Shown: positions 8,854 through 45,427 of the stretch, piece by piece | Layout of the letters: every line of letters begins with the position of its first letter | Position numbering within the stretch: position 1 is the stretch's first letter | Assembly (NCBI GenBank): GCA_004431415.1 | Contig: QPMI01000475.1 | Span: 1 to 64,000, forward strand | DNA: 64,000 nucleotides | Origin: Cyanophora paradoxa CCMP329 | Lineage: Eukaryota; Plantae; Glaucophyta | Direction: 5' to 3' | Made by a program: the position numbers and the translations under genes | Notes under the pieces: model-generated | Databases searched by the model: none | What the model was told of the DNA's origin: nothing | What the model saw: the letters and a program-made list of their open reading frames with translations, nothing else

Positions 8854-9587
8854 ATGGGTGAATATAATCGAGTTCAACTTCCAATATATTCCCTTGGATC
8901 CCCTGCAATGCACTTTCGCCAGCATGAAGTTAATGATGAGGTTCGTGGTTTAGAATCCACAGAGAGACCCAATTCCAATGGTAACTCCTTTGATAAAAAT
9001 TCGATTATTCGAGTTAAAGAGCTGAGAGCTGATAAGAATTCAGGTGTGGTTAAAACAACTCGACTTCTTGTCACAAATGCTAACTTCTTTCAGCCTACTA
9101 ATGGAGGTCCTGATGCTTACAGTGTTGATCTGAAAGCCCTTGATTATGATAAAAACACTGCTGCTGTAACTGTGAGATCAGGAGGAGCATTTATTGGTGG
9201 TGGCTGCAGAGTTTCAGGTCAACTTTCATCCTCAATTTCGTATAATGATGTCCCAGATACTCTTGAACAAAATGTAGAGAACCCACAACGAATTCGATTA
9301 TATATACCAGTTGCACAACAGCCAGTTATTCAATTTTACCAAGGTTATACTGTCACACTTGAAAACTCTGAATTGATTGAAGGAACCAAAAGAGTAATGA
9401 GAGGGCTGGTCATTCCTTCTGCAATGCTTTCTTTATGTAGAGCCAACAATAACCAGCCAGGTCACAGATACAATTTCAGTGTTCAGGGATATGATCATTT
9501 TGGCACAGGGTTCTGTGTTTATAATAACAATTTCACCTATGATCTGTTTGTTACAGATATTGGAAAATATACAATTACAGTTATGGG
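8854..9587 (+). pseudogene. 5' part of a spike-family gene disrupted by the inner element
   Basis: MGEYNRVQLP... is homologous to 35106..35948; the frame continues at 39274. Confidence 0.9.
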
Positions 9588-9694
9588 ACACATAAATAAA
9601 AACAAATTTAAATCCCTCGCTCTATCGCTCAATTCGCGCTTCGCGCTCATTTCGCTCTGTCGCTCAGGATTTAAATTTGTTTTTATTTATGTGT
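9588..9694. other. Terminal hairpin: 28-bp perfect stem with 51-nt TCGC-rich loop
   Basis: ACACATAAATAAAAACAAATTTAAATCC at 9588-9615 and its reverse complement at 9667-9694; mirrored at 39161-39267. Confidence 0.92.
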
Positions 9695-10048
9695 AAATTA
9701 ATCGAAAATATTTAAAAAATAAATCAAAATTTTTAATAAAATCAATTAAATTTAAATAAATTCGATTAAATTAATTGGTATAATATCAATTAAATTATGA
9801 TTTTATGAAATTTATATAAATTTTTGATAAATTACGTATTTCTCGATTGATTTAATGATATAAACGCGATTAATTTGTATTTAAATGAAAAATACGTATT
9901 TTGCGATTGATATAAACGCGATTAATTTGTATTTTATGCAAAATCGATATAATCTCGATTGAGGGAACATAAATTTATGATATAATCAATCACGATTGAA
10001 GTAGTCCACCTCCCATTCTATCGTAAAACGCAAAAATTCACACAGAGT

Positions 10049-10700
10049 TGCATTACGTCCAATTAAACAATCGATGAGATTGCGGCGTATTTTGTTGGAA
10101 GAGATGGTTACTGCATTATGTCCAATTAAACAATCGATGAAATATCGGATGAAAATAATTCACTCGTTACGGCATTATGTCCAATTAAACAATCGTTGAG
10201 ATTGCGGGAAACAAAAATGACCCCAGAGTTGCATTATGTCCAATTAAACAATCGATGAAATATCGGATGAAAATAATTCACTCGTTACTGCATTATGTCC
10301 AATTAAACAATCGATGAGATTGCGGCGTATTTTGTTGGAAGGGATGGTTACTGCATTATGTCCAATTAAACAATCGATGAGATTGCGGCGTATTTTGTTG
10401 GAAGGGATGGTTACTGCATTATGTCCAATTAAACAATCGATGAAATATCGGATGAAAATAATTCACTCGTTACTGCATTATGTCCAATTAAACAATCGAT
10501 GAGATTGCGGCGTATTTTGTTGGAAGGGATGGTTACTGCATTATGTCCAATTAAACAATTGATGAGATTGCGGTGTATTTTGTTGGATTAGATGGTTACT
10601 GCATTATGTCCAATTAAACAATCGATGAGATTCGGGTAAGATTTTTACTGTATCAAAATTGACCCCAGAGTTGCATTATGTCCAATTAAACAATTGATAA
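10049..10700 (+). repeat. Array of 11 conserved 29-bp repeats with 30-43-bp variable spacers (in left TIR)
   Basis: TGCATTATGTCCAATTAAACAATCGATGA at 10049, 10112, 10171, 10230, 10289, 10352, 10415, 10474, 10537, 10600 and 10672. Confidence 0.92.
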
Positions 10701-10758
10701 GATTGGATTCTGTTGTTTACTGTAAAAACATTGTATCTTAGGTGTATCAATCTCAATT

Positions 10759-11114
10759 AATCGAGGGTAACAGAGGTAACGGATTTTTCCCAACCTCTCC
10801 CCTAAGATCGAGATTTTCAAAAAGTTGCGCAAAATCCGTTACCTCTGTTACCCTCGATTAAATCCGTTACCTCAATTAAAATCTGTTACCCTTACTGAAA
10901 ATAAGAATGAATCTGTTACCCTTACCATAATAAGTAATGAGTTCTTGAATAATTAATCTTTGTTTAATGATAAACAATTGAGGGTAACAGAGGTAACGGA
11001 TTTTTCCCAACCTTTCCCTAAGATCGAGATTTTCAAAAAGTTGCGCAAAATCCGTTACCTCTGTTACCCTTACTGAAAATAAGAATAAATCTGTTACCTT
11101 TGTTATCTGTTACC
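10759..11114. promoter_or_regulatory. GGTAAC(A/G)GA iteron hairpins (putative origin elements) in left TIR
   Basis: Two inverted-repeat cassettes (10759-10859, 10981-11071) plus extra TGTTACC copies; the same cassette occurs at 20314-20414. Confidence 0.55.
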
Positions 11115-11365
11115 ATTTATAGTAAGAAAACAATAAATTCTTTGTTTTATAAGTAAGATTAACTCGGAAATCGCGCTGCTATCTGCTTCTCCGCTTTCTC
11201 CAACCCTGAAAAGATCTCTGTTATTCTCTCATCTATCAATTTAGATATTACGGAGGTCTTACTTTCAAAAAAATGATGCTCGTGGGCAACCCAAAATGAT
11301 TTAAGGAAGAAGCGACAGTATAGAGTAAACCGGGTAAAAGATTTTCTCAGACGTAATTCAGTGTC

Positions 11366-11983
11366 ATGGCGTATCTCTTCGAAGGTGAGCCGATCTTCTC
11401 GGTTCCGATTGCTGAAATGCGATTTGGTGTGAAGGATATTCTTGATCTTGCTGAAACTATTGAGGTTTTGCATCGAAAGATTGGAACATACTCTTATCCT
11501 GGAATGGATCAAATGGTTTGTTTTGGTTATTTTCGGAGAAATTCGGATCGGATTTGTGCGAGAACTCGCGATGATCGGTTCTTCTTTAATCATGTGAATT
11601 ATAATGATCATGGTAAGTTTAGCCATCTTAATGAAGTGCGTAATGCTGAACTTGATTTCATCGTTGTTGTTAATTTTCATGATCTTCTTTTCAACACTAC
11701 AAAGACTCACGATGACGTAATTAATGCAATTGGGATATGCTATGGACAAGAAGAACATCGTGAACGTTACTATTTCCACATTCCAAGAGATCTTCGTGCT
11801 TATCATGCTAAGTTTGAAGAGCATGGATGGAAGATTGTGAACCGAGCGACTCTACGTAAATACCTTAAACAAAATGGCGCTCGTTGGGTTCGCGAAAACA
11901 ACAGATGGTATACAGAGGATCAGAATGGTGTTGTCGCTGATATCTTCAAACCATATATCCCAATAGTTAATCGTATCCAATAG
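11366..11983 (+). CDS. Hypothetical protein (205 aa)
   Basis: ATG-initiated ORF with virus-like codon use; no recognised motif. Confidence 0.65.
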   Translation: MAYLFEGEPIFSVPIAEMRFGVKDILDLAETIEVLHRKIGTYSYPGMDQMVCFGYFRRNSDRICARTRDDRFFFNHVNYNDHGKFSHLNEVRNAELDFIVVVNFHDLLFNTTKTHDDVINAIGICYGQEEHRERYYFHIPRDLRAYHAKFEEHGWKIVNRATLRKYLKQNGARWVRENNRWYTEDQNGVVADIFKPYIPIVNRIQ

Positions 11984-12869
11984 CTACAAACTCCAACTGA
12001 AACGAATTATCGATACCATTCATATCTACAAGATCACCAAAATAATCACGAAACTCAACTGTTAATTCACGAATAACAAGGTTTTTGTCTGTTATTTTTA
12101 TGTATTCACCATGCTCTCCGCTATGGTAAACATACTTCCCGATGTCCTGACTCAATTGTAATCGCAAGATCGCGCCTTGATTCTGCGGTTGCGATTTCGG
12201 GACTATATTGTGGTTCGATGCAAAAGAAGAGAGTTCCTTGATATGCATATACAAGTATTGCTCAGCGTTCATATCCGCCATCTTTGGACTTGTTGCTTTA
12301 TGTTGCAACGGCACCGGATCTGCACCATCAAACGTTATTCCCCATTGTGGGTGATTAGGTGTTATTGGTCTTCCTGCATAGGATAAGTAATTCTCAGGAG
12401 CAAATACAGACCTGTTATCTTCTAAATTATGTTGCTGGCTTACCAATAATGTAGAACTCAGACCAAGTAGTTTGGCGATTCTATTGTTTGACGCTGCTAT
12501 TTCAAATGGAACGCTGCTATAAAATTCTAACTTGTATGTCGTTGGATTGTAGTAGATCTTAAATAATATATTTTCAGTAACCGCAAAGTTTAAACCATAA
12601 TTATATGGTTGTGTCACTCCAAAATGCCCTTGGTTTACATAACCACTCGGTAATGGAAACAGTTGCTGATTAAGAGAAACACCGTCAATATTGTAACGAA
12701 TCATAATATAATCGGTTCCAATCGAATTATAGATGCTGTTGGGAATCTCTGCATACAAAATACGACACTGTCGCGGTCTGGTTATTGGTGTGGTAAGTGA
12801 GACCTTGTAAGCGTTTTCGTTTTGTCCATCTAATCGATCTCTACTATCGACATTGACAAGCCGAATCAT
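11967..12869 (-). CDS. Minor capsid (penton)-like protein 1
   Basis: VDSRDR...IPNSIYN and LTVEFRDYFGDLVDMNGIDNSFQLEF motifs. Confidence 0.78.
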   Translation of the reverse strand: MIRLVNVDSRDRLDGQNENAYKVSLTTPITRPRQCRILYAEIPNSIYNSIGTDYIMIRYNIDGVSLNQQLFPLPSGYVNQGHFGVTQPYNYGLNFAVTENILFKIYYNPTTYKLEFYSSVPFEIAASNNRIAKLLGLSSTLLVSQQHNLEDNRSVFAPENYLSYAGRPITPNHPQWGITFDGADPVPLQHKATSPKMADMNAEQYLYMHIKELSSFASNHNIVPKSQPQNQGAILRLQLSQDIGKYVYHSGEHGEYIKITDKNLVIRELTVEFRDYFGDLVDMNGIDNSFQLEFVAIGYD

Positions 12870-12897
12870 TTTATTATATGGTTATAGATAAAAGAAG

Positions 12898-13902
12898 ATG
12901 CCTGTGGAATACGTTGAAGTGTCTTCCTTCAAAACGCTACCTAATCTGGATGCTCCAACATCTCGGTTTGTTGCGGATCTCCCAAAGACGTATGAGAATG
13001 TAAGAGCGGTTCGCCTTGTCTCCGCTGAATTCTATAACTCCATCCCGCTCATTAGTGGTGAAACAGAACCTGGGGATGCAACAATAGAGGATGCCTTTAT
13101 TATCAATTTCAGCCAAAAGTCCACATCCACCGGTGCAAATGCTCCTGAGATTCTTTATGATAGTTGGCGTTCTATTAGACCTGGTGCAGGTCTAAAAACC
13201 CCAATCAATACTCATCAGCAACTCGTTGCCCGAATCAATAACCGTTTTGAGAATCTCTCGCCTCCTTCTGCAATTCGCTGTGGTTGGGATGTAACCCAAA
13301 AAAAAGTTATCTTTTATGCTCCTGTGGAGTTCTATATTTGCTTCTCATATGCAAAAGATCCTTCTGTTTCTGCAATCGAGAAAGCGCTACGACATGCTCG
13401 AATCTTGGGTTTGGATGCTGGACGCTGGGGAAACAAGTTTATTAAATCACAAGTCTATGGAACAGATACAAGCTCCGTTTTTACAGGTGCAAACGTAAAT
13501 GGTATTATCTCAACATTCCCCACAGAGACCTGCAAAGATAACGTCTTTTTCGTGAGAGTAAAAGAACTGGGTGACCTCGTCCAATGTGCCGATGGTCTCC
13601 TAACTGGATACTTCCATAAACTTATGGTTCAAGATAGAGAATTCGCGGAACACGTTGTTTACAATTCGACCGAAGCAAATCCGCTGTATAAATACTATAA
13701 TAAGAAACTATCACTATCGCAATTCTCGGTAGATATAGTGAATGCTCAAAATGAATTAATTGATTTCGAGGGGCAACCTGTGCATCTGACATTCGAAATC
13801 CGTTATGGTGATGAACCCGCCGGTGATCCCATTTATGAATATTTCAAAATGAGAATGAGAGAGACCCACCCCTTCTATCCAAATATTGCTGGATTCGCGT
13901 AA
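12898..13902 (+). CDS. Minor capsid (penton)-like protein 2
   Basis: F..DLP..YENVRAVRLVSAEF and FSVDIVNAQNELIDFEGQPVHLTFEI match the same fold family; lies immediately upstream of the MCP. Confidence 0.7.
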   Translation: MPVEYVEVSSFKTLPNLDAPTSRFVADLPKTYENVRAVRLVSAEFYNSIPLISGETEPGDATIEDAFIINFSQKSTSTGANAPEILYDSWRSIRPGAGLKTPINTHQQLVARINNRFENLSPPSAIRCGWDVTQKKVIFYAPVEFYICFSYAKDPSVSAIEKALRHARILGLDAGRWGNKFIKSQVYGTDTSSVFTGANVNGIISTFPTETCKDNVFFVRVKELGDLVQCADGLLTGYFHKLMVQDREFAEHVVYNSTEANPLYKYYNKKLSLSQFSVDIVNAQNELIDFEGQPVHLTFEIRYGDEPAGDPIYEYFKMRMRETHPFYPNIAGFA

Positions 13903-13956: not shown

Positions 13957-15354
13957 ATGGATGTTACCTCGACCCTTCAACGTCTTTCTCTGAAAGAGGC
14001 GCTAACAACGCCCGAGGAAGCCAAAGCGTTCTTCCTCGATAACTCGCTTATGCTTGGTCTTGAATCAAAGACGAAACCCGTTCTCGTTACTGTTAGTCCC
14101 TCGACAACCTATGAAAACAATGTAGGTCAACGCGTTTCTTTCAAACTTCCCCGCTACAACTTTGTTGGTAAAATCGAACTCGCTTTCGACCTTCCCGAAC
14201 TAACGGCTTTTGAAGGTGATACCGACCTGGTGCGAAATGGTTACACCCGTCCCATCGGTGCGCTTGTAGAGCGTCTTGAATTCTCGTATGGATCGTATAC
14301 CTACCACGTCCCAAGCGATTTTCTTGCGATTTTCCCACTGGTCTACTATTCTGAGGATCAGCTGGCGAAAAAGAAGCGTTCAATGGGAATGCTTCATGGA
14401 ATTCCCGCTCACGGAACCAACCGTAAAGGTGGCGCTTTCTTCGTTGAAATTCCGGTGCCGTGGTTGAACCACTACCTACCTCTTGGCGCTCTGAGCGGTG
14501 AAGCCGTAATCACTGTTTGGTTCAAAGAAGCTAACAAGGGATATCTTGAAACTTCTTATGGCGGTCGCGCTCTTCCGGTTGTGACAACCGCTGCGGATCA
14601 AACCGCAAATGACGGTCTCGGAAGCGCTACTGGTGTAACTCTTGCTAATGTCGGTCAAAACATCACCACTGGCGGTATTACTGGGTTCGAAGTTGCTGGA
14701 ACTGTTCCACCAATGACCCATTACATCTCCATTAAGTCTCCTCGTCTCTACATGCATGCTATTAACGTTTCTGATGAACTGTTCGCTACTGTTATTGAGA
14801 AGGTTAAGACCACGGGGATGGCTATTCCTGCTCTCGATATCGGTTTCGTTGATGCTATCGGTGTTGCTGCGAAAGGTAACACTCAACCCAACCGAATCAA
14901 TCTTAGCCAAATCTCTGGTCTGGTTTATGCTCTTCTTGTCTCTGTTCGCGATGCCGATGGTGTCGATACTTCCAATGGTTCTCACAGCGTTCTAAAAACG
15001 CTTGCGAACGCGAAGGATATCACGATGACCTGTGAGATTAACGGACAACGTCTTTACTCGACGGAGCCAATCCCGCTACTTAAAGGTGCGGAACTCATCG
15101 CCGATGCCTTCAAATGCTCGAATATGGACAAGGAAGCAAACCGTTACGTCCTTACTGGTCTTCCATTCTGTGTTGATGGTGAGAAGGCGATTCGCAACAT
15201 TGCCCAATCTGGATATGTTGATCTCACCAACTCGTCTTCATCATTCCTCACTCTATATCTTCCTGCTGATCGCACAATTACTGTTAACGTTCGCGCTCTC
15301 ATGCATTCGTTCATTATTGTCGATAAGGACGGAATTCGCCGCATTAATCTCTAA
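13957..15354 (+). CDS. Double-jelly-roll major capsid protein (465 aa)
   Basis: Size, position between minor capsid and ATPase genes, NCLDV/PLV-like motifs (GQRVSFKLPR, IELAFDLPEL, YLPLGAL..EAVITVWF, SGYVDL) and strongly biased codon use. Confidence 0.8.
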   Translation: MDVTSTLQRLSLKEALTTPEEAKAFFLDNSLMLGLESKTKPVLVTVSPSTTYENNVGQRVSFKLPRYNFVGKIELAFDLPELTAFEGDTDLVRNGYTRPIGALVERLEFSYGSYTYHVPSDFLAIFPLVYYSEDQLAKKKRSMGMLHGIPAHGTNRKGGAFFVEIPVPWLNHYLPLGALSGEAVITVWFKEANKGYLETSYGGRALPVVTTAADQTANDGLGSATGVTLANVGQNITTGGITGFEVAGTVPPMTHYISIKSPRLYMHAINVSDELFATVIEKVKTTGMAIPALDIGFVDAIGVAAKGNTQPNRINLSQISGLVYALLVSVRDADGVDTSNGSHSVLKTLANAKDITMTCEINGQRLYSTEPIPLLKGAELIADAFKCSNMDKEANRYVLTGLPFCVDGEKAIRNIAQSGYVDLTNSSSSFLTLYLPADRTITVNVRALMHSFIIVDKDGIRRINL

Positions 15355-15415
15355 ACCATTATCAGTAAGATTTCGTTATTTTTATCTATCTTTATTAAGA
15401 AAGATCTACTACGCC

Positions 15416-16198
15416 ATGTCTGACGTTCCCGAATTTAATGCTGCTGAGATGATTAAACCCCCTTTTCGCGTATTAGCAATCGGAAAAAGCGCGACGGGCA
15501 AGTCAGAAGCGGTGAAGTATTGGCTAAAACAACTTCACGATGCGAAAAAGTTAGATGTTGTTCTTGTTATAAGTGGGACGAGTTTCAATCATTTCTGGAA
15601 TGATGTTGCTACATTACAGCTCGGTAAATGGGATGCGCCTTACATTTCTAAACTTCTCGATGAAAGACAAGAGAAAATAGAGAAAGGAGAACCTGTAAAT
15701 CAACTGTTAGTTTTGCTCGATGATTTAATAGATAATGAGTTAGTCGACCTCACCCGTGATAAAATCATTGGTTCTTTGTATTCCCGTGGTCGCCACTCGA
15801 ACATATCGATTGTCTGTATCACACAGAAACTGCGTAAGGTTTCTTCAACCATTCGCGTCAATTCAGATTATGCAATGTTCCTAAGTGCCGCCAATCGCAA
15901 AGAACTGGAAGCCATTGAAGAAGAATACAATATCATGCGGGATAAAGACGCTTTCTATAAGATGTTTGAGGAATACGTTCACTCCTATCAGTTTCTCATT
16001 TGGAGTTCTGCGAATTATTCGGTGGAATACTATGTTGATAAAGCGGAACTCGTTAAAGACTTTAAGTTTCCTCGGTTCCATCGCAAACCAAAAAAGAAAG
16101 AAGATGAATTAAAACCGCCTGAGAAGGAGGAAGCGCCGAAAGAGATTAAAAGCGCTGTTCACACGAATAAGTTGATGCGATATAAGAGGGGATTGTAA
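15416..16198 (+). CDS. A32-like genome packaging ATPase
   Basis: Walker A GKSATGKS, Walker B LLVLLDD, and A32 motifs SRGRHSNIS and ITQ...IRVNSDY. True start is probably the ATG at 15416. Confidence 0.92.
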   Translation: MSDVPEFNAAEMIKPPFRVLAIGKSATGKSEAVKYWLKQLHDAKKLDVVLVISGTSFNHFWNDVATLQLGKWDAPYISKLLDERQEKIEKGEPVNQLLVLLDDLIDNELVDLTRDKIIGSLYSRGRHSNISIVCITQKLRKVSSTIRVNSDYAMFLSAANRKELEAIEEEYNIMRDKDAFYKMFEEYVHSYQFLIWSSANYSVEYYVDKAELVKDFKFPRFHRKPKKKEDELKPPEKEEAPKEIKSAVHTNKLMRYKRGL

Positions 16199-17854: not shown

Positions 17855-20206
17855 ATGAACGCTGCCGCCAAGAAATCCCTGAAACGCCTTGTTGATTGGC
17901 TTCGTGAAGACGATGTCCGGTCTGAGAATATCGTAATCCCCGTCGATCCCGATACCAAAAAACCCCTCTTCGCCCATAAAGACGGATCGTGGACTTGGGA
18001 TAAATTCGATGAAGCCCTGAAATCCGGTAAGTATACTGCTTGGGGCATTCTCGCTCGCAACATCGTGGTTATCGACTTCGACCAAGAGGAGGATTTCGCC
18101 AAATTCGAGGAGGAATATCCCGATGATTTCGGTGGTGTCAATCCTCTTGCTAAAACCAAAAAAGGATATCATGTTTACTTCTCTCGTCCTACTGACTTCG
18201 ATGCTGTTAAGCTCTGGGATAAAGCGGGTGCTTTCAAAGGTTATCCCAAGATTGACTGCAAAACAATTGCATCCACTGGAACGGCTGGGTTGATCAACGT
18301 TTCCCCAAGCCCTGGTAAAACTTGGATCAGAGAACCATGGGCGGAAGGCTGTGAGTTGATCGAACCGAGTGCTGAACTCCAAAAGTGGATGATTGAAAAC
18401 TACCTTTTTCCGAGAGGATCTTTCAGTTTCGTTGAAAAGGGTATTGAGGAGAACTTACAGAAAGCTATCTTTGAGAAACTGGAAGAATTTGGATTCATCA
18501 CACCCACGATCATCAATGAGACGGAGCATGGCTACAATTTCACTGCTGAAAACAAAGGGAATGATTGTCCTTGTTGCAATCGAGTTCACGATTCCAACAA
18601 TTGGTATGTGATTCGAGGAAAAGAGAAGGGCATATATATCGTTTCGAGTTACAGTGCGAATTGCAAGAAGCGTTCTATCATCGTGCGAGTCAAAGAGGAG
18701 ACTTTGGCTAATATCGATCACCTAATTGATAAGTCTACGGGTTCAGATGGCGGGCATTATGATGTTGCGGATGTTGCTTACCTCATTCTGCGGGAAAGCT
18801 ACAAGTTTTCGAACAAGACTTGGTTCAAGTTCAATGAGAAAAGTGGTATTTGGGAGATGGATGATACTGGAAAGCGAATCTATCTTTGTCTGAGTGCGAA
18901 AGTTTGTCCTGCTTATCTGAAACGTGCTATTGAATACTCAACAAAAGCGCTTCGTGATGAAGAGAACCGTAATATGTTCGAAGAGAAGGCAAAGACGTTG
19001 CTTGGAATTGCAAAGATGCTGAAACAAACTTCATATCGGAGGTCGGTTATCAATGATCTCGAAGTTTACCTGAGTGATAGATTGTTCTTTGGGAAACTTG
19101 ATACTGTTCCCAACGTGATCGGGTTCACAAATGGAGTATTCGACTTGAAGACTATGTCTTTTCGCAAAGGAGTTCCGGATGATATGATCAGTAAGACTGT
19201 TGGCTATGATTACACCACAGAAATCGATCAAGAGAAAGTTGAGAAACTCAAATCGATTTACGCTGATATTATCGAATGCCCAATTGATCGTAACTACGTT
19301 CTCGGTTCCATTGCTTTCTCATTGTCTGGTAAGATCGAAAACCAAAAATATCATTTCTGGACTGGAATTGGAGCAAATGGTAAATCACTCCTTCAAGAGT
19401 TGGTGAAAGATACCTATGGTGAATACTATGGATCTCTTGATATGTCGTATTGGACGAAACCAAAGAAAAGTTCATCGGAGGCGTCACCCGAACTTGCCGA
19501 TATTCTTGGAAAAAGGATTGTTTTCAGTAATGAAGCGGAAGATGGCGATAAACTTCAACTCAACAAGATTAAACAGATCAGTGGAGGCAATGAGTTGAAG
19601 GTTCGCGCTCTTTTCAAGGATCCCGTAGTCTTTGTTCCAATGTTTCAGCTGTTCTTGTCAACAAATGACAACCTTGGATTGAGCAAACCCGATAACGCAA
19701 TTGAGAGGCGGACATCTTACTACCGGTTCAAGTGTGTATTCAAACCAAACCCTGGTGAAGGCGAGAAGTTAGCCGATACATCACTTATGTATCTTCTGCG
19801 TGACGATGATGATTACAAGATGGCTAACATGTCAATCTTCTTGGAGATGTGGAAATCCCAAGATCTTCTGAAATTGATGAAGAACCCGCCACAGACCATC
19901 ATTGATGAAGGAGCGAGTTACTTTGCTGAAAATGATAAGATCGGCGAGTGGCTGCGCAACAACTACGAGAAAACAGGAAGCCGGACTGATTTCGTCCCAA
20001 GTGACACGATCATCAAGGGGTTCCGTTCTGTTGATGAGAAAGCGGATCCCATCAGCATTGGTAAGCCAGTTCGGGAGATCTACAATATCAAATCTGAGAC
20101 CAAGAAAGAAAGAGGTCAGGTATCCCGTGGATATTTCGGATTGAAGAAGAAACAGATCGGAGAATTCGTTGATGATGATGGAATCGACAGCGATATCGAG
20201 GCTTGA
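17855..20206 (+). CDS. AEP (Prim-Pol) primase, Zn-ribbon and D5-like SF3 helicase
   Basis: VVIDFD and TKKGYHVYF (AEP motifs), CPCC..H..C, IGFTNGVFDL (D5_N), Walker A GIGANGKS, and motif C LSTND. Confidence 0.92.
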   Translation: MNAAAKKSLKRLVDWLREDDVRSENIVIPVDPDTKKPLFAHKDGSWTWDKFDEALKSGKYTAWGILARNIVVIDFDQEEDFAKFEEEYPDDFGGVNPLAKTKKGYHVYFSRPTDFDAVKLWDKAGAFKGYPKIDCKTIASTGTAGLINVSPSPGKTWIREPWAEGCELIEPSAELQKWMIENYLFPRGSFSFVEKGIEENLQKAIFEKLEEFGFITPTIINETEHGYNFTAENKGNDCPCCNRVHDSNNWYVIRGKEKGIYIVSSYSANCKKRSIIVRVKEETLANIDHLIDKSTGSDGGHYDVADVAYLILRESYKFSNKTWFKFNEKSGIWEMDDTGKRIYLCLSAKVCPAYLKRAIEYSTKALRDEENRNMFEEKAKTLLGIAKMLKQTSYRRSVINDLEVYLSDRLFFGKLDTVPNVIGFTNGVFDLKTMSFRKGVPDDMISKTVGYDYTTEIDQEKVEKLKSIYADIIECPIDRNYVLGSIAFSLSGKIENQKYHFWTGIGANGKSLLQELVKDTYGEYYGSLDMSYWTKPKKSSSEASPELADILGKRIVFSNEAEDGDKLQLNKIKQISGGNELKVRALFKDPVVFVPMFQLFLSTNDNLGLSKPDNAIERRTSYYRFKCVFKPNPGEGEKLADTSLMYLLRDDDDYKMANMSIFLEMWKSQDLLKLMKNPPQTIIDEGASYFAENDKIGEWLRNNYEKTGSRTDFVPSDTIIKGFRSVDEKADPISIGKPVREIYNIKSETKKERGQVSRGYFGLKKKQIGEFVDDDGIDSDIEA

Positions 20207-20256: not shown

Positions 20257-20414
20257 TTACTGAATATGGTAAGGGTAACAGAGGTAACGGATTTAATCGA
20301 GGGTAACGGATTTAATCGAGGGTAACAGAGGTAACGGATTTTGCGCAACTTTTTGAAAATCTCGATCTTAGGGGAGAGGTTGGGAAAAATCCGTTACCTC
20401 TGTTACCCTCGATT
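20257..20414. promoter_or_regulatory. Internal iteron/hairpin cassette (putative origin) downstream of the primase-helicase
   Basis: 29-bp stem at 20314-20342/20386-20414 built from GGTAAC(A/G)GA units; the iteron block is preceded by TTACTGAATATGGT. Confidence 0.55.
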
Positions 20415-20699: not shown

Positions 20700-23600
20700 A
20701 TGCCCCGCCAAACGAACAGACTGATCAAAGAAAAGAAAAATGAAATACTTGGATTGTTAGGAACTCTCTTAGTTACCGGTGAGATAACCGAAGCGGAATA
20801 CGATAGAGAAGCCGCCATCTTAGATAGACGACCGCGATTAGGTCAACTCACTGAGATTGCAAATGACCTCTACAATCGCATGCAGAGAATGGAGGAGTTT
20901 ATGGATGAAGGACAGAGATTAGGAGCAATTGACCCGGACATTGAAGATGGTCAAGCAATGAATCAAGCGTATTCGTGGTTGACCTATCGCGCCCGAAACG
21001 AAGTTGTCGTGGATGCTATCGAATTCCTCGAAAGAATCGCACCAAGTCTACCGCAACGCATTAGAACCCGCTTAGATCAACTGAGAGCCGTTAAAGTCCG
21101 TCTGACTTTCGTTTGCAAGTTCACCAAAGTAGGTAATCCGCGCATCTATATCACCAAATTCATTTACAGCGATTATTTCGTAATTACCCGATCCCGCAAC
21201 ATAGACACAGAAGTTCGCAAAGCGTTACAGAAAATGCAAGAGGAAATGACGCAAGTGGATAGTTACCGTTTAGAGAAGATCGAAATTTTAAGAGGTGTAA
21301 TCATGTCATACGCACCTGTGGGTGGTTGTTTTTTCGCAACTCCCGAATGGATCGCATCCAAGAAGGCAACGGTGAACGTTAAGAATATCGACGGTCAAGA
21401 TTGCTTCAAGTATGCGATTTTGGCTTACCTACATCGAAAGGACATTAACAAACACAAGAGCAACGAACCAAGCCAATACCGCAGATGGTTAAATGAACTC
21501 AATTTCGAAGGTATTCAGTTTCCCGTTGCCTGTGATGCTGAGGTAATCGATCGATTCGAAGAACTGAACCCCGAACTTTCTATTAACATTTACGGAGCCG
21601 ATAACGCCAAAGAGTGTTTCTATCCTCTCCATCAATCAAGTAACCCAAGGAGAAAGACCAAGATTAATCTTTTACTTATCGAAAACACCGAAGATGATCG
21701 GGGACACTACATTACTATCATGTCTTTTAGTCGTCTTCTGAAAACTACATTTGATAAAGCATGTGATGGTCGCATTTACTACTGTGAAACCTGCTTGTCT
21801 CGTTTCAGAACTCAGGAGAAATTAGACCTGCATGTTGAAGCGAATCGCTGCATTGATTGGAGGGAGAGCAAAGGCAAATGCCCAAAAGCGGGAAGCGTAA
21901 TTGAATTCGGTCTGCAACATCTGCGTAAAACTGTTTGGCTACCCGTGATCTGTTATGTTAAAGTCGAAGATCATTCGGTTGCTATTGATGCACAGAGGAG
22001 TAAACGTGAGATCAAAGCGGTTTCATTGAGAGTGGTAATGGGAGATGAAGTGAGAGCATACCATTTCGAGGGAGCCGATCCGCTTGGTTCTCTCTTTGCT
22101 ACTCTACAAGATATTAGACCCGAAATCGTTGAGACGCTGTTTAGAAACATTCCGATGCATCCACTCACAGACGATCAGAAGGCGGAATACAAGGTAACAA
22201 AACACTGTTACATTTGCTCTCAGAGATTCACCCACGAAAACTTCCCGGTTCGCGATCATTGCCACCAATCCGGCGATTTCATCGGAAAGGCATGCCGAAA
22301 CTGTAACCTCCACCGGCGAATCTCAAAGCAAACCAAAGTAGCTATCGTGGTCGATCACATGGATGAATGCGGACACGGAATATTCCGCAAAATTGCCCAA
22401 CAAGATGATAAACTACGTGTTGAGATTCTGAGCAAGAATTTCGATCAATACCTATCGCTTCAATGGGGCATGTGGAAGTTCATAGATGCTTCCCATTTTA
22501 TGGATTTCCAATCTGTGGATGTAGGCGATTTAATGAGAAAGTTTGAAGCATTTCGCAAATTGGCGTTTTCTCAATACGGATTGGATCCCGCACATTATGT
22601 TAGCGCACCGGGTCTCTCTTGGGATGCTATGCTAAAACATACGAAAGTTAAGATTGAACTAATCGATGATGTAGAGAAATACGAATTTGTTGAGAGAGCC
22701 ATTCGCGGTGGATTTGCTACCATGCCCACACGATACGCAAAGGTAGAAAACCCCAACGATCATATAGTTCTGTTGGATGCAAATAATCTTTATGGTTATG
22801 CTCTCAGTCAACCACTACCAATCGGAGATTATCGATGGGAAGACATCACAGAGGCACTTAAAGAGGTAGAGGGACGAAGCGCATTTATTGAAGTAGATCT
22901 TGAATACCCCACAACTTTTGAAGATCATTACGATTTCCCACTGATTGTGAATAAAGAAGTGATTACCGCTGAAATGCTTGGTGATTATCAACGTAAACTA
23001 TTAGATCTGACGGGCGAAAAGATCAGCAAAGACCCCAAACTTACAGCGACATTTACGCCCAAGAATAAATACGTGATTGCTCGACCTCTTCTTAACTACA
23101 TCGTTAAAAAGGGTGTCATTCTAAAAAAGATACATAAAGTTCTCTCATTCGCTACCTCCCCATTCATGAGATCTTACATTGGTCTGAATACTCTACTCCG
23201 CCATGAATCTACTAACCATTTTGAAAGCGACTTCTTTAAACTCATGAACAATGCAATTTACGGTAAATGTTTGGAATCTTGCAGGGGTCGCTCAACTGTC
23301 AAGATTGCTAACAGTGAGAAACTCTGTAAGAAATACGCAGCAAGTCCGCTTATCAAGGCGACCAATGTATTAAACGAAAACGCAGTTGCCTTCGAGATGT
23401 ATTCGAAGCATGTTAATTTAGATAAACCCGTAGCAATTGGCGCTTTCGTTTTGGATTTCGCGAAACTCCATAATTATCGATTCTTCTATGATGTGGTAAG
23501 GAAGAAGTGGGAAACCGCCAAACTACTGTTCCACGATACCGATTCGTTCTGTTTGTTCTTGAAAACAAATAATCTCAATGAAGATATGAAAGAGATAGGT

Positions 23601-23981
23601 GAGTATCTCGATAGGAGCAATTACGATAAATCCCATCCTCTTGTGAGTATCAAAAACCGCATGGTTCCTGGTAAATATAAGAATGAGTTTCCAAATGCAA
23701 AGATCATGGAGTATGTGGGTCTGAGATCGAAACTCTATGCTTTCAGAACTGAGACCAACGAAAGAGTAAAGATGTCGGGGACTTCCTCGAAAGAGGTTCA
23801 CTTTGACGATTTTAAGAGATGTCTGTTTGAAGGCATCATAAAAACAGTATCAGTAACAAACAAGCGAAGGCAAGACCACAACTTATATGACTTGGAGAGC
23901 AGAAGGGTCGCTCTAAACCAACTCGATAGCAAACGGAAGATATCAGCCGACGGCATTCACAGCATTCCATTTGGTCTTTAA
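20700..23981 (+). CDS. Polinton-type (protein-primed family) DNA polymerase B with Zn-finger and Endo VII-like domain
   Basis: CFKYAIL, C2H2 (CETC...LHVEANRC), RDHCHQSG..GKACRNCN, motif A DANNLYGYAL, motif B KLMNNAIYGK, motif C DTDS, and LRSKLY. Confidence 0.93.
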   Translation: MPRQTNRLIKEKKNEILGLLGTLLVTGEITEAEYDREAAILDRRPRLGQLTEIANDLYNRMQRMEEFMDEGQRLGAIDPDIEDGQAMNQAYSWLTYRARNEVVVDAIEFLERIAPSLPQRIRTRLDQLRAVKVRLTFVCKFTKVGNPRIYITKFIYSDYFVITRSRNIDTEVRKALQKMQEEMTQVDSYRLEKIEILRGVIMSYAPVGGCFFATPEWIASKKATVNVKNIDGQDCFKYAILAYLHRKDINKHKSNEPSQYRRWLNELNFEGIQFPVACDAEVIDRFEELNPELSINIYGADNAKECFYPLHQSSNPRRKTKINLLLIENTEDDRGHYITIMSFSRLLKTTFDKACDGRIYYCETCLSRFRTQEKLDLHVEANRCIDWRESKGKCPKAGSVIEFGLQHLRKTVWLPVICYVKVEDHSVAIDAQRSKREIKAVSLRVVMGDEVRAYHFEGADPLGSLFATLQDIRPEIVETLFRNIPMHPLTDDQKAEYKVTKHCYICSQRFTHENFPVRDHCHQSGDFIGKACRNCNLHRRISKQTKVAIVVDHMDECGHGIFRKIAQQDDKLRVEILSKNFDQYLSLQWGMWKFIDASHFMDFQSVDVGDLMRKFEAFRKLAFSQYGLDPAHYVSAPGLSWDAMLKHTKVKIELIDDVEKYEFVERAIRGGFATMPTRYAKVENPNDHIVLLDANNLYGYALSQPLPIGDYRWEDITEALKEVEGRSAFIEVDLEYPTTFEDHYDFPLIVNKEVITAEMLGDYQRKLLDLTGEKISKDPKLTATFTPKNKYVIARPLLNYIVKKGVILKKIHKVLSFATSPFMRSYIGLNTLLRHESTNHFESDFFKLMNNAIYGKCLESCRGRSTVKIANSEKLCKKYAASPLIKATNVLNENAVAFEMYSKHVNLDKPVAIGAFVLDFAKLHNYRFFYDVVRKKWETAKLLFHDTDSFCLFLKTNNLNEDMKEIGEYLDRSNYDKSHPLVSIKNRMVPGKYKNEFPNAKIMEYVGLRSKLYAFRTETNERVKMSGTSSKEVHFDDFKRCLFEGIIKTVSVTNKRRQDHNLYDLESRRVALNQLDSKRKISADGIHSIPFGL

Positions 23982-24166: not shown

Positions 24167-25567
24167 ATGCCCTCAGCACAGATAGGATTACGACCCGTTC
24201 CTAAAATCGTAAAGAAGAGCATGAAAGAAGACCAAGGGAACATGCTACCGATCACTATTCCGGTCGAAGAGAAGAACACGCGAATCTTGAAGAAGTCTGA
24301 GATGGTTAAAGAACTGATCCCGGAGGCATTACCTACTGAGACTGCAACGAAAGAATCGAAGATCGCGAAGAAGTTTTACGATCCGCGCACGGGTTACAAG
24401 GGTTTCGGGGCAATGAGAAAGGAACTACCAGAGGAAGACTACAAGAAGATGAGAGAATGGTATGATAAACAGGAAGTCGTTCAGATAAACGCACCGACCC
24501 TTTCAAGAAAGAGAGATCCGATGATTCCGATTCGGCAACCTCTCGATACCTACGTAATCGATCTGCTCTTCTTCCCAGCATACAAGAACCAAAACGACGG
24601 ATACGATACGTTCATGTCCGCGATGGAATCTACCTTACGCACGGGTTACATCATTCCGATGAGAGATAAGAGCGCTCTTACGGCGCTTGCGGCGTTTGAA
24701 CAGCTACAACGAAGAGTTCCTCGACCTATCGCACGCGTTCAGAGTGACAGCGGAAGCGAGTTCACAAATAACATGTTCACGAATTACCTTGCTAAGAAGT
24801 TCATAGACCATCAGATAAGCGATGTCGCAGATCATCGAAGCCAAGGTAGAATCGAAGCGTTTAACAAGCAGATCAAACGATTGATCACGAACTATTGCAT
24901 AGCAAACAACACAGCGCGATTCTTCGATGTATTGGGAGACATTGAGTATAACTATAATAATACCATCCACTCAGCAACCAAGAGAAAACCAGCAGAAACG
25001 ACGGAAGATCATTACCGTGAGATTATCGGATTAGAAGATGAGAGGTTCAAGAAGTCGATTGCTTACTTGGATGGTATCAAACAGGGTATGTTTGTGAGAG
25101 TGAGAATAGAAAAGAACCCATTCGCTAAACAAGGTGTCAATTGGTCGCGAATCGTCTATACTGTCGAAGGGAGAGAGGGTTTCAAGTTCAGGTTGCGAAA
25201 TCCGAACGGCGAAATGGTCGAAGGGAGATTCGCTTTCCACGAACTGTTACCTATCAAAGGTGTTGAGTATCACGAAGCGCCCACAGTGGATGCACTTGAA
25301 CAAGCGAAAGAAGAAGCCCGGGTCGATTCGGCAATTCGCAAGGAAGGCATCGAAAAAGCGGATGACGTCCCAGAAGAACCGTTAACACAAGCCAGAACCA
25401 AGAAGAAAGGTAAGGCGGAACGTGAATTAAAGAAGTTAACCATAGCAGGAACCCAGAAACTATCAGAAGTCAACAGTCAGAGATGGTATACAGACTTTCA
25501 GACCTCAAAAGAGACATATTCAGCCCCACAAACCCGGGTAAATCTAAGATCCAGTTCGCGAAAGTAG
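24167..25567 (+). CDS. Retroviral-type (RVE) DDE integrase
   Basis: YVIDL, QSDSGSEF, QGRIEAFNKQIK and YNNTIHSATKRKP; Polinton-like C-terminal FAKQGVNWS..VYTV. Confidence 0.93.
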   Translation: MPSAQIGLRPVPKIVKKSMKEDQGNMLPITIPVEEKNTRILKKSEMVKELIPEALPTETATKESKIAKKFYDPRTGYKGFGAMRKELPEEDYKKMREWYDKQEVVQINAPTLSRKRDPMIPIRQPLDTYVIDLLFFPAYKNQNDGYDTFMSAMESTLRTGYIIPMRDKSALTALAAFEQLQRRVPRPIARVQSDSGSEFTNNMFTNYLAKKFIDHQISDVADHRSQGRIEAFNKQIKRLITNYCIANNTARFFDVLGDIEYNYNNTIHSATKRKPAETTEDHYREIIGLEDERFKKSIAYLDGIKQGMFVRVRIEKNPFAKQGVNWSRIVYTVEGREGFKFRLRNPNGEMVEGRFAFHELLPIKGVEYHEAPTVDALEQAKEEARVDSAIRKEGIEKADDVPEEPLTQARTKKKGKAERELKKLTIAGTQKLSEVNSQRWYTDFQTSKETYSAPQTRVNLRSSSRK

Positions 25568-35105: not shown

Positions 35106-35948
35106 ATGGGCGAATATAATCGAGTCCAATTACCAGTTTACGCATTGGGTGCGCCCGCGGTTCACTTTCGACAACACGAGGTTGCCGACGAAATTCGCGG
35201 TGTGGAATCGACGGAACGCGCTAACTCCGCGAATGCATTTGATAAAAACAGCATGATACGTGTTAAAGAACTACGCGCCGACAAGAATTCGGGAGTGGTT
35301 AAAACGACTCAACTTCTTGTAACAAATGCGAATTTTAACGCGGGAATCGGGCAACCTGATGCATGGGGTGTGGATATTAGAACGTTAGATTTTGACGGAG
35401 AACGTGCCGCCGCTGTTGTCCGATCAGGAGGCGCTGTTATTGGTGGCGGTTGTCGTGTGTCGGGTATGCTTGCATCCTCCGTTGCTGTTACCGATATTCC
35501 CGATACTCTACCTGAGCATGCGGAGAATCCGCAACGTATCCGTATGTATACCCCATGTGGAGATTATCCGTATGTGTTTGGAATGGTCAGAGTTGGGGTA
35601 GATAACGTAAATGCAACACAACCCGATGGAATTTTGGGAAATTGGTTATTACCAAATATTGCTATTCCTAAATCTATTGAGTCTATATGTCGTTCACAAA
35701 ATGGTATTATCGGTCCAGCTTATACTTTCTTTGTTCAGGGAATCGGACGCGGTAGAGGTTGGGTGGAGTTTGATAATCAAAACCCCGCTACGTTTAATGT
35801 TTGGACAACAGAAGTAGGAGGTTATGATATTCTCATTTTCGGAATGCGAACAGATCCAGCCGCTGTGGCGGCTACACGTGGTCTCAATCCCGATAACAAC
35901 CTAAATAACTTCTACGATGATCCGTTCCCAGGTGATCCCACACCATAA
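35106..35948 (+). CDS. Spike-family structural protein (intact homolog of the disrupted target gene)
   Basis: VKELRADKNSGVVKTT...RSGGA anchor motif; aligns with 8854-9587 plus 39274-39385. Confidence 0.75.
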   Translation: MGEYNRVQLPVYALGAPAVHFRQHEVADEIRGVESTERANSANAFDKNSMIRVKELRADKNSGVVKTTQLLVTNANFNAGIGQPDAWGVDIRTLDFDGERAAAVVRSGGAVIGGGCRVSGMLASSVAVTDIPDTLPEHAENPQRIRMYTPCGDYPYVFGMVRVGVDNVNATQPDGILGNWLLPNIAIPKSIESICRSQNGIIGPAYTFFVQGIGRGRGWVEFDNQNPATFNVWTTEVGGYDILIFGMRTDPAAVAATRGLNPDNNLNNFYDDPFPGDPTP

Positions 35949-37293: not shown

Positions 37294-37695
37294 ATGAACT
37301 ATCATCGGGGATTTCACGTGATGTTGGATTACAAGTTCAATCATCCATTGATGGTGGGATTGGACAACATAGACACCACAACGAAGTGGTTAATGCAATT
37401 TTTTCAATCTATTATTCAAGAGCAAGGTATCCGAGTTGTTCACAAGCATTGCGAGATTTTCGATGGTGGTGTTTCGCCACCCGGTTTTGCGATGGTATTA
37501 CTCCTCGATGAGAGCCATTTAACCGCTCATTGTTATTCAGACCAGGGAATGTTGGCGATTGATATATTCACTTGCGGATTGGAAGCGCAAAGTAAGACCT
37601 CCGTAATATCTAAATTGATAGATGAGAGAATAACAGAGATCTTTTCAGGGTTGGAGAAAGCGGAGAAGCAGATAGCAGCGCGATTTCCGAGTTAA
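37294..37695 (+). CDS. speD: S-adenosylmethionine decarboxylase proenzyme (short prokaryotic/viral type)
   Basis: G.H...D, F..GVSPPG.A.VLLLDESHLTAHCY (pyruvoyl E|SH cleavage site) and AIDIFTCG. Confidence 0.88.
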   Translation: MNYHRGFHVMLDYKFNHPLMVGLDNIDTTTKWLMQFFQSIIQEQGIRVVHKHCEIFDGGVSPPGFAMVLLLDESHLTAHCYSDQGMLAIDIFTCGLEAQSKTSVISKLIDERITEIFSGLEKAEKQIAARFPS

Positions 37696-39267
37696 TCTTA
37701 CTTATAAAACAAAGAATTTATTGTTTTCTTACTATAAATGGTAACAGATAACAAAGGTAACAGATTTATTCTTATTTTCAGTAAGGGTAACAGAGGTAAC
37801 GGATTTTGCGCAACTTTTTGAAAATCTCGATCTTAGGGGAAAGGTTGGGAAAAATCCGTTACCTCTGTTACCCTCAATTGTTTATCATTAAACAAAGATT
37901 AATTATTCAAGAACTCATTACTTATTATGGTAAGGGTAACAGATTCATTCTTATTTTCAGTAAGGGTAACAGATTTTAATTGAGGTAACGGATTTAATCG
38001 AGGGTAACAGAGGTAACGGATTTTGCGCAACTTTTTGAAAATCTCGATCTTAGGGGAGAGGTTGGGAAAAATCCGTTACCTCTGTTACCCTCGATTAATT
38101 GAGATTGATACACCTAAGATACAATGTTTTTACAGTAAAAAACAGAATCCAATCTTATCAATTGTTTAATTGGACATAATGCAACTCTGGGGTCAATTTT
38201 GATACAGTAAAAATCTTACCCGAATCTCATCGATTGTTTAATTGGACATAATGCAGTAACCATCTAATCCAACAAAATACACCGCAATCTCATCAATTGT
38301 TTAATTGGACATAATGCAGTAACCATCCCTTCCAACAAAATACGCCGCAATCTCATCGATTGTTTAATTGGACATAATGCAGTAACGAGTGAATTATTTT
38401 CATCCGATATTTCATCGATTGTTTAATTGGACATAATGCAGTAACCATCCCTTCCAACAAAATACGCCGCAATCTCATCGATTGTTTAATTGGACATAAT
38501 GCAGTAACCATCCCTTCCAACAAAATACGCCGCAATCTCATCGATTGTTTAATTGGACATAATGCAGTAACGAGTGAATTATTTTCATCCGATATTTCAT
38601 CGATTGTTTAATTGGACATAATGCAACTCTGGGGTCATTTTTGTTTCCCGCAATCTCAACGATTGTTTAATTGGACATAATGCCGTAACGAGTGAATTAT
38701 TTTCATCCGATATTTCATCGATTGTTTAATTGGACATAATGCAGTAACCATCTCTTCCAACAAAATACGCCGCAATCTCATCGATTGTTTAATTGGACGT
38801 AATGCAACTCTGTGTGAATTTTTGCGTTTTACGATAGAATGGGAGGTGGACTACTTCAATCGTGATTGATTATATCATAAATTTATGTTCCCTCAATCGA
38901 GATTATATCGATTTTGCATAAAATACAAATTAATCGCGTTTATATCAATCGCAAAATACGTATTTTTCATTTAAATACAAATTAATCGCGTTTATATCAT
39001 TAAATCAATCGAGAAATACGTAATTTATCAAAAATTTATATAAATTTCATAAAATCATAATTTAATTGATATTATACCAATTAATTTAATCGAATTTATT
39101 TAAATTTAATTGATTTTATTAAAAATTTTGATTTATTTTTTAAATATTTTCGATTAATTTACACATAAATAAAAACAAATTTAAATCCTGAGCGACAGAG
39201 CGAAATGAGCGCGAAGCGCGAATTGAGCGATAGAGCGAGGGATTTAAATTTGTTTTTATTTATGTGT
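37589..39267 (-). repeat. Right terminal inverted repeat of the inner element
   Basis: Mirror of 9588-11265, including the array (38155-38806) and terminal hairpin (39161-39267). Confidence 0.95.
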
Positions 39268-39273
39268 TATGGG

Positions 39274-40557: not shown

Positions 40558-40956
40558 ATGGAGACTAAATACAGAGGCTTTCATGTTATGCTTGATTACA
40601 AGGCTAAATCAGCTATTGCAACAGGACATGAGCATGTAAGCTTCCTAGGTAATTGGATTATGGGAACCCTTGAACAAGCAGTATTAAGACAAGGCATTAG
40701 GATTGTTCATAAACACTGTGAGATATTTGATGGCAAAATATCACCTCCTGGTTTTGCATTGGTTCTGCTATTAGATGAAAGCCATTGCACAGCTCATTGT
40801 TATTCCAATGAAGGCATGTTAGCAATTGATATATTCAGTTGTGGTAAAGAAGCTCAGCATAAAACACAAGCAGTTGCAGATGAGATCGATAAAACAATGA
40901 ATTTCTTAACATTTGAGAAGACTGAGAGACATAAACATGATAGATTCCCGTTTTGA
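40558..40956 (+). CDS. speD: S-adenosylmethionine decarboxylase, outer element
   Basis: LLLDESHCTAHCY...AIDIFSCG; homolog of 37294..37695. Confidence 0.88.
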   Translation: METKYRGFHVMLDYKAKSAIATGHEHVSFLGNWIMGTLEQAVLRQGIRIVHKHCEIFDGKISPPGFALVLLLDESHCTAHCYSNEGMLAIDIFSCGKEAQHKTQAVADEIDKTMNFLTFEKTERHKHDRFPF

Positions 40957-41369: not shown

Positions 41370-41845
41370 TAAATGCATTTTTTGAATCAACTACACCAAC
41401 TAACACTGAGATTTTACCAATATATGAGGTCCTTACTGAATATGGTTTGTGTGACAGGTGTGACAGGTCTATCCCAAACTTTTCTATAGCATAAAAATGA
41501 ACTCTCAAAAGTTTGGGATGGACCTGTCACACCTGTCACACTCGATTATTTCATTTGTTTATTCAAGTAGAATTACATAGATAAACTTCTTACTTATTGT
41601 TACTGAGTTTTTCATTATAAAAGAGATCCTTACTGAATATGGTTTGTGTGACAGGTGTGACAGGATGCATTTTGTGAATCAACTACACCAACTAACACTG
41701 AAATTTTAACATTAAAAGAGATCCTTACTGAATATGGTTTGTGTGACAGGTGTGACAGGTCTATCCCAAACTTTTCTATAACATAAAAATGAACTATCAA
41801 AAGTTTGGGATAGACCTGTCACACCTGTCACACCCAATTATTTCA
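41370..41845. repeat. Duplicated ~170-bp unit with GTGTGACAG iteron hairpins (outer element subterminal region)
   Basis: 35-bp stems at 41449-41541 and 41741-41833, each preceded by TTACTGAATATGGT. Confidence 0.85.
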
Positions 41846-42084: not shown

Positions 42085-42367
42085 ACACATAGTAAAATGC
42101 GGAGTTTTAACCAGAGGCAAGATCTAATTGAGATTCAGTTATATTATTCGGAAATATATACAGATTATCGATAGACTCAGTAAGACTAATCGGAAAATAA
42201 GAGAAATTTACGATAAAATATCGAAAAGAATACAAAATAATCGAAATAAATGAATATTCGATAAGATATACACAGATTATCGATTGATTGAAATAGAATA
42301 TACGAGATATATCAACAAAATCAATTAAGATAAGCCGAGGGTTAAAACTCCGCATTTTACTATGTGT
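42085..42367. other. Right terminal hairpin of the outer element (28-bp stem)
   Basis: ACACATAGTAAAATGCGGAGTTTTAACC at 42085-42112 and its reverse complement at 42340-42367. Confidence 0.9.
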
Positions 42368-45169: not shown

Positions 45170-45427
45170 CCGTAAAACACAATATTAATGCGCTCAATAT
45201 TAATGCGTTTTTGGACCCGGACCCCTCGTATGGCTAATAATGCGCCCCCAAATTAATGCGTTTTTACGCTTTCTCGCCTGCATAAGGGGGGTACTGAGTC
45301 CTACTGTCTGCAGTTTCTTAGCGTTCTGTTATTAATGCGCCCCCAAATTAATGCGTTTTGACGGCAAAAAACGCATTAATTTGGGGGCGCATTAATATTA
45401 TGCGCGCATTAATATTCTGCTTTACGG
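45170..45427. mobile_element. Tc2/pogo-type MITE (258 bp)
   Basis: TA|CCGTAAA.CA.AATATTAATGCGC ... GCGCATTAATATT.TG.TTTACGG|TA: TA duplication, CCGTA termini and internal ATTAATGCG repeats. Confidence 0.75.

Follow-up and report, generated by a model that had tools for sequence, protein, structure and literature searches.

How the genome ends of Polinton-like viruses (PLVs) are completed and protected is still open, and a preprint of 2026 calls, in its accessible part, for tests of this question (bioRxiv 10.64898/2026.07.28.741278). The question is raised by a stretch of 64,000 nucleotides from Cyanophora paradoxa CCMP329 (assembly GCA_004431415.1, contig QPMI01000475.1, positions 1 to 64,000 of the forward strand), which is referred to as the window. 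It contains two nested PLVs, and the inner unit comprises positions 9588-39267. Both ends of this unit, and one end of the outer unit, consist of a 28-bp inverted repeat with a spacer, which an earlier note had described as a stem with a loop. Judged from the register of its letters, the 51-nt spacer of the inner element is not an open loop and continues the stem, with mismatches, on one strand only. The sequence itself thereby points to the strand that is single-stranded at the tip of the virus.

The window was scanned for perfect stems of at least 14 bp. Perfect 28-bp inverted repeats are located at 9588-9615/9667-9694 and at 39161-39188/39240-39267, each with a spacer of 51 nt, and a third one with a spacer of 227 nt is located at the end of the outer element (42085-42112/42340-42367). 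The terminal inverted copies claimed for these three ends proved to be perfect throughout; on folding they reach z-scores of roughly -10 to -11, and none of 200 shuffles was equally stable. The 107-nt hairpin at the left 3' terminus (9588-9694, minus strand; GCGAAGC cap at 9638-9644) is identical to the right one (39161-39267, plus strand; cap at 39211-39217). Both form the tips of terminal inverted repeats (TIRs) of 1678 bp (9588-11265, plus strand) and 1679 bp (37589-39267, minus strand), which differ at two places. The sequence TATGGG is duplicated on both sides of the element (9582-9587 and 39268-39273, plus strand), and an empty site with a single TATGGG is present in contigs of all four sequencing runs examined. 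The inner element is complete, with 1.68-kb TIRs and a 6-bp target-site duplication (TSD). The end of the outer element is marked by a drop of the contig depth beyond 42367 to the level of the flank (about 121 in run X1) and by a step in GC content. Comparison of the inner and outer stems revealed 16 of 28 letters in common, including the first seven (ACACATA), whereas 12 positions differ and the pairing is still complete. The earlier claim of a shared terminal motif, internal divergence and a conserved stem length was borne out; since the window holds three of the four ends (the outer left end lies outside), the conserved length refers to two homologous families. No match to Rfam was found for the tips, and the subterminal repeats gave only microRNA-like matches below threshold.

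On the strand with the 3' end of the element, position i of the inner spacer pairs with position 52-i in exact register. This arrangement results in 12 Watson-Crick pairs, 11 G·A or A·G pairs and single T·G and C·A oppositions. The G·A pairs form five tandems, and a further one closes the GAA loop of the GCGAAGC cap. In the right hairpin (plus strand) the tandem pairs are located at 39190/1, 39194/5, 39198/9, 39202/3 and 39207/8, with the partners 39237/8, 39233/4, 39229/30, 39225/6 and 39220/1. Watson-Crick or G·A pairs occupy 23 of 25 spacer positions, a score reached by 0 of 200,000 mononucleotide shuffles and by 3 of 50,000 dinucleotide shuffles; 9 of 50,000 shuffles contained as many as five G·A tandems. 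A register scan of both strands of the complete window ranked the two inner hairpin centres as the top two (score 22; next 18). The complementary strand of the spacer shows 11 T·C or C·T oppositions and a TTC loop. According to the accessible part of the literature, the d(GCGAAGC) mini-hairpin is formed by GNA triloops only, melts at 76°C, resists 3' exonuclease and escapes nearest-neighbour models (PMC13037366), and therefore the complementary TTC loop should not form it. Standard palindrome and folding tools call this G·A spacer a loop.

The 15-letter pattern of the cap occurs at at least 121 viral loci, and among the 80 loci with examined flanks none extends like the hairpins of the window (best run 18 versus 44 of 46). 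At one of these loci (L027, positions 385-430) a hairpin between genes of a viral contig of 180 kb carries the GA-GCGC-GAA-GCGC-GA cap found here on a longer Watson-Crick stem, and shorter versions of this cap exist at several other loci. A viral contig of 2,254 bases contains the cap motif near both ends (L014, 31-45; L015, 401-415), which is probably a circular overlap.

The 283-nt 3'-terminal hairpin of the outer element (42085-42367, plus strand) is composed of the 28-bp stem, an A·G opposition, a tandem G·A, three G-C pairs and an imperfect purine-mismatched stem. The arm-to-arm Watson-Crick score of its spacer is 68 compared with 39.8 +/- 6.1 for shuffles, none of which (0 of 1,000) was as high, and 68 of the 79 unpaired letters on the 3' strand are purines. 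As 63% of the spacer are purines, this bias is partly compositional, and the composition itself is the asymmetry. The outer spacer is best described, from its letters, as a looser and irregular purine-mismatched hairpin. In both families the 28-bp stem is followed by a single mismatch, then by a tandem G·A (pairs 30-31) and then by G-C pairs, and the purine strand is at the 3' side in both inner ends and in the outer end.

The earlier note had suggested that copies of the element might differ by inversion of the loop (flip/flop). The stretch is present in 20 of 22 listed runs, always as contigs, which sample proviruses only. The evidence on orientation comes from one informative run, X1, with filtered records and 11 of 31 pieces listed; in run X16 the spacer is not covered. 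In X1 a 56-letter contig (depth 470) runs unbroken from the TIR via the stem into the spacer in the reference orientation, and the spacer contig shows no differences at a depth of 1,063 versus 121 for the flank. If the contigs are 31-letter unitigs, as we infer, an inverted spacer elsewhere would break the 56-letter contig, unless its flank ends with TT. The inverted form of the inner family was not seen in the X1 contigs, and no strand-changing joint at either hairpin was found among the contig records listed. Stem variants occur in both arms; the variant in X1 departs from the reference at 39170-39172, and X16 contains variants of the outer arm with two and four other letters and one contig with two unmatched letters after the stem. 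A 31-letter contig of X16 at 39237-39267 has four differences and a depth of 2,800 (flank 49), which points to a sister family that has many copies and a tip resembling this one.

The inner element encodes two replication proteins. The first is a protein-primed DNA polymerase, PolB (20700-23981, plus strand), with a terminal-protein fold, Ser188, the vOTU residues Cys235 and His336, an endonuclease VII finger and intact motifs A-C. Its relatives are Polinton and adintovirus protein-primed PolBs (pPolBs) among the best 120 of 1,134 matches; counts out of 121 rows include the window protein. The model (pLDDT 88.4) resembles the phi29 polymerase, and no PDB sequence match was obtained. In the predicted model Ser188 is located in a loop of the N-terminal domain between helix 168-184 and strand 189-203. 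In the preprint by Krupovic et al. the linking residue is assigned to the loop that joins the second helix to the last strand (10.1101/2024.03.18.585575). The closest homologue, P0006, also has the Asp-Ser-Tyr of the linking loop, the vOTU Cys is present in 121 of 121 rows and the His in 120 of 121. Judged from alignment and model, the polymerase appears to have kept the terminal-protein fold, the linking Ser and the vOTU protease and to have lost proofreading. The second protein is a Prim-Pol/D5-type primase-helicase (17855-20206, plus strand) with DxD, His and Walker A motifs.

Repeats of the iteron-like sequence GGTAAC(A/G)G form arrays in the inner element. Each TIR contains two head-to-head pairs with a 43-nt spacer (10757-11114; mirror copy 37740-38098), and a third head-to-head array directly follows the stop codon of the primase-helicase gene (20257-20414). 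In the outer element, head-to-head pairs of the iteron-like GTGACAGG with a 23-nt spacer are located at 41433-41833, preceded by a TTACTGAATATGG motif as at 20257. The arrays of both elements have diverged in sequence, yet they lie behind a common 13-letter motif of the TTACTGAATATGG type. We take them to resemble the iteron origins of phage satellites. The arrays are candidate internal replication origins, and the one at 20257-20414 is the candidate cognate origin of the primase-helicase.

A reading of these ends can build on the stems, the G·A register with its strand bias, the enzymes with their motifs, the arrays and the absence of an inverted spacer in the one informative run. The best reading, to which we assign a probability of roughly 0.45, is by analogy with Streptomyces that the fold-backs cap 3' overhangs which are patched by terminal-protein priming. 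The primase-helicase would copy the genome from the internal repeat origins, and lagging-strand synthesis would leave the 3' tail alone single-stranded. The 3' tails may then snap into the G·A-stabilized hairpins until the terminal-protein-primed polymerase fills in. The hairpin would withstand nucleases, a trimmed tip could be re-copied from the inner arm, the terminal protein would prime at the terminal ACAC repeat, and the integrase would insert the finished duplex with the 6-bp duplication. Only the 3' strand would be built to fold because replication from internal origins leaves exactly this strand single-stranded; the 28 bp may stay perfect because the tip is re-copied, and the orientation may never invert because priming takes place at ACAC. 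A terminal repeat of the ACAC type is typical of protein priming. No extra steps are needed for end patching to fit the retained terminal protein, the ACAC repeat, the flawless 28-bp stem and the single orientation. The earlier note had considered a self-priming hairpin, flip-flop ends or paired integrase sites. It had overlooked three features that point to end patching as a fourth option: the asymmetry between the strands, the terminal-protein domain that PolB has kept, and the primase-helicase accompanied by an internal origin-like array. Its proposal of a dedicated end structure is supported by the strand-specific G·A hairpin, more strongly than by what the note had described; the flip-flop part found no support in the one run, and the self-priming part survives as a close rival.

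Several points weigh against terminal-protein patching. The combined Watson-Crick and G·A score was chosen only once the sequence had been seen; for Watson-Crick pairs alone 68 of 3,000 shuffles were as good, and in ViennaRNA the two inner strands differ by only 2.7 kcal/mol. Tandem sheared G·A pairs are nearly as stable as normal pairs, a point for which we found no supporting paper. Among the 32 mismatched columns of the outer spacer 17 are A·A and only 8 are G·A. The linking loop lacks a Gly that is found in 114 of the 120 homologues (5 differ, 1 is short), and the three exonuclease motifs, present in 111, 115 and 119 of the 120, are lost together with about 90 residues of that region, a loss shared with P0006; therefore PolB may be decaying from its priming role. 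The origin function of the arrays is itself a candidate assignment, the replicase genes of the outer element lie outside the window, and general Pfam and PHROGs scans, which did not include Tpg/Tap profiles, gave no match to a Tap-like protein or to Tpg. The 3'-terminal base pairs flush with the template and is a natural substrate for self-priming. In the accessible parts of the sources, the Streptomyces fold-back was extended in vitro by self-priming (PMC4513846/PMC5449611), and the palindromes of the Halocafeteria elements accompany mostly non-pPolB replicases (bioRxiv 10.64898/2026.07.28.741278).

The flush 3' pairing and the bias towards the 3' strand also speak for a rolling hairpin of fixed orientation in which the 3' hairpin itself primes synthesis. 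In such a scheme, nicks would be set after both S' stem copies, with the integrase or the endonuclease VII finger as the nicking activity. The duplex freed from the provirus in this way would end in G·A hairpins, the same nicking would open these ends anew in each round, and host gap repair after integration would unfold the hairpins into the form seen. By geometry, with four identical cut sites the virus would receive the G·A strand at its two ends. The presence of a D5-type helicase and of a PolB without proofreading motifs and linking-loop Gly is compatible with this scheme. The parvovirus 3' hairpin primes and contains a GA/GAA mismatch with asymmetric resolution (PMC1185569, accessible part), and self-priming was also proposed for the Halocafeteria elements in the part of that preprint at hand (bioRxiv 10.64898/2026.07.28.741278). 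Ordinary resolution, in contrast, gives flip and flop, and this mix was not seen in the one informative run, so that self-priming needs an extra asymmetric step. Moreover, no dedicated nickase was found among the open reading frames (ORFs) scanned, 23 against Pfam and 8 against PHROGs with small ORFs outside the scan; an HUH Rep or a protelomerase gave no match in the same set, with several ORFs left unassigned. The terminal-protein fold, Ser188 and the vOTU catalytic residues are retained, which also speaks against self-priming. Taken together, we regard this scheme as a close rival that is somewhat less probable than end patching.

It is unlikely that the packaging ATPase or the integrase simply recognizes the hairpin, or the 28-bp site in its doubled form, as a signal with no role in finishing replication. 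The fixed length of 28 bp and the conserved terminal seven letters would suit the footprint of a protein, both an A32 ATPase and an integrase are present, and mismatches in the vaccinia hairpin serve packaging and not DNA synthesis (PMC8956199, accessible part), but folding of the 3' strand only is left unexplained unless this strand is single-stranded at some stage. Covalently closed flip/flop telomeres of the poxvirus type, resolved from concatemer junctions, are quite improbable: the inner element has a D5 helicase, an A32 ATPase and an endonuclease VII finger, but the purine strand is at the 3' side of both inner ends and of the outer end, no flop path was seen in X1, and a flop end would forfeit 11 G·A pairs. 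An accidental and functionless fold-back duplication is hardly credible, since it would give a perfect or randomly decayed palindrome and not five tandem G·A pairs with a GCGAAGC cap, and 12 of 28 stem positions differ between the families with full pairing retained, even though the comparison covers just two families and accidental annealing is named as an alternative in the accessible part of the Halocafeteria preprint (bioRxiv 10.64898/2026.07.28.741278).

The gene content identifies the inner element as a PLV. It encodes a double jelly-roll (DJR) capsid protein, an A32 ATPase, the primase-helicase, PolB, an rve integrase, a patatin and fibre-like proteins. The model of the capsid protein (13957-15354, plus strand) is of low confidence (pLDDT 49.5) and matches PBCV-1 and iridovirus capsids with E values of about 4e-10 (PBCV-1 Vp54, 3.9e-10), whereas the Sputnik and mavirus capsids rank lower; the closest relative is a C. 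paradoxa protein with 60% identity, which makes this alga the probable host. The A32-type packaging ATPase is encoded at 15104-16198 (plus strand; PF04665, E 1.8e-11) and the retroviral-type integrase at 24167-25567 (plus strand), with D132, D194 and E230 invariant in a four-row alignment. A 63-bp tandem array of 9.5 copies is located inside the left TIR (10049-10632, plus strand; mirror copy at about 38223-38806). No Pfam match to an Ulp1/adenain maturation protease was found among the 23 ORFs scanned, which did not include the small ones. A virophage identity was rejected, as the capsid ranks nearer to PBCV-1 than to Sputnik or mavirus and no protease matched in these ORFs. Capsid fold, ATPase and TIRs with rve integrase and 6-bp TSD are those of PLVs and Polintons, and a pPolB with terminal protein and vOTU, as in strict Polintons, is present despite the loss of the exonuclease motifs.

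The outer unit is, by sequence comparison, a diverged relative (61% identity in one common protein, 66-77% DNA identity over common genes), and the inner unit is inserted into one of its genes. This interrupted gene (8854-9587 and 39274 onward) is homologous to the inner gene at 35106-35948, and uninterrupted copies exist in public contigs. The outer gene pair at 1-1903 is inverted relative to the inner pair at 11967-13902 and lies directly beside the patatin gene, and therefore the capsid-replication block has been rearranged between the elements. The last gene of either element codes for an S-adenosylmethionine decarboxylase (37294-37695 and 40558-40956); in the inner element the TIR encloses the 3' end of this gene, a mirror copy of which is present at the left end (11159-11265). 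A repeat cluster on the host side (45185-45400) includes a perfect 30-bp stem with an 8-nt loop (45330-45397).

Searches with the capsid and primase-helicase loci found no relative, the integrase search found two distant loci (23-26% identity), neither with comparable hairpins, and two end-sequence patterns gave 0 matches; these protein-locus, cap-pattern and end-pattern searches thus yielded no relative outside the C. paradoxa genome whose ends are comparable. Likewise, no paper on G·A-built ends in PLVs was found in a search that mostly did not extend to subscription journals. A natural DNA stem with five regularly spaced tandem G·A pairs is a clear case of selection on a non-Watson-Crick structure, and a 107-mer together with two small protein domains makes the question of the ends testable at the bench. 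If our reading is true, the G·A design would provide a hairpin that is stable as a single strand yet forms no full cruciform in the provirus, and palindrome screens may have overlooked a hidden and widespread class of virus ends.

Terminal palindromes of PLVs and virophages and a priming model for them are already known. The accessible part of the preprint describes them for Halocafeteria seosinensis virophages (subtypes 1, 2, 5 and 6) and a PLV (subtype 4) (bioRxiv 10.64898/2026.07.28.741278). As here, the palindrome is located at the TIR tip beside the TSD of an rve-integrating endogenous virus, and hairpin priming was proposed. Those palindromes were found with a gap of at most 10 and at most 4 mismatches, settings that would miss spacers of 51 and 227 nt. 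The ends described here differ in being strand-specific, G·A-built and combined with a terminal-protein PolB, whereas theirs are mostly associated with other replicases.

With Polintons and PLVs the inner element shares TIRs, a 6-bp TSD, DJR capsid, A32, rve and a polymerase of the terminal protein-vOTU-PolB type, as far as described in the accessible parts of 10.1101/2024.03.18.585575, PMC12220804 and PMC8502044. The latter two mention PLV-type elements in C. paradoxa and, in these parts, no hairpins; neither PMC12220804 nor the Krupovic preprint (10.1101/2024.03.18.585575) uses the word hairpin. The inner element differs from Polintons by an added D5 primase-helicase, a dead exonuclease, the missing match to a maturation protease and the hairpin tips. 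The termini are AC...GT, unlike those of canonical Polintons, which are AG...CT. The parvoviruses MVM and LuIII likewise have a 3'-terminal hairpin with a purine mismatch and a flush primer, and one left-end orientation is reported, but their genome is single-stranded DNA with the HUH nickase NS1, whereas a DJR-type capsid, an integrase and no HUH match were found here (PMC1185569, accessible part). The d(GCGAAGC) heptamer of the G4, ssiA and N4 signals is the one that caps the inner hairpin (PMC13037366, accessible part); unlike in these signals, here it sits at a genome end, on a stem of 53 pairs that includes five G·A tandems.

A close parallel is the Streptomyces telomere, for which the accessible parts of PMC4513846 and PMC5449611 describe internal origins, 3' overhangs of about 300 nt, sheared G:A hairpins, terminal fold-back, patching by the terminal-protein system Tpg/Tap and fold-back repair of trimmed tips. 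Both systems show fold-back of the 3' strand with a GNA loop and sheared G:A pairs (here deduced from the sequence register), pairing of the terminal bases with an inner copy, a terminal protein (here a predicted one) and a scale of 100-300 nt. In contrast to Streptomyces, the element described here is a eukaryotic integrating virus with one long hairpin and a PRD1-type terminal protein fused to PolB, and the likeness is one of analogy, not homology. It is a tentative possibility, somewhat short of an even chance, that a eukaryotic virus has independently reached the design of the Streptomyces telomere, with iteron origins, tails folded by sheared G·A pairs and an end-patching polymerase without proofreading.
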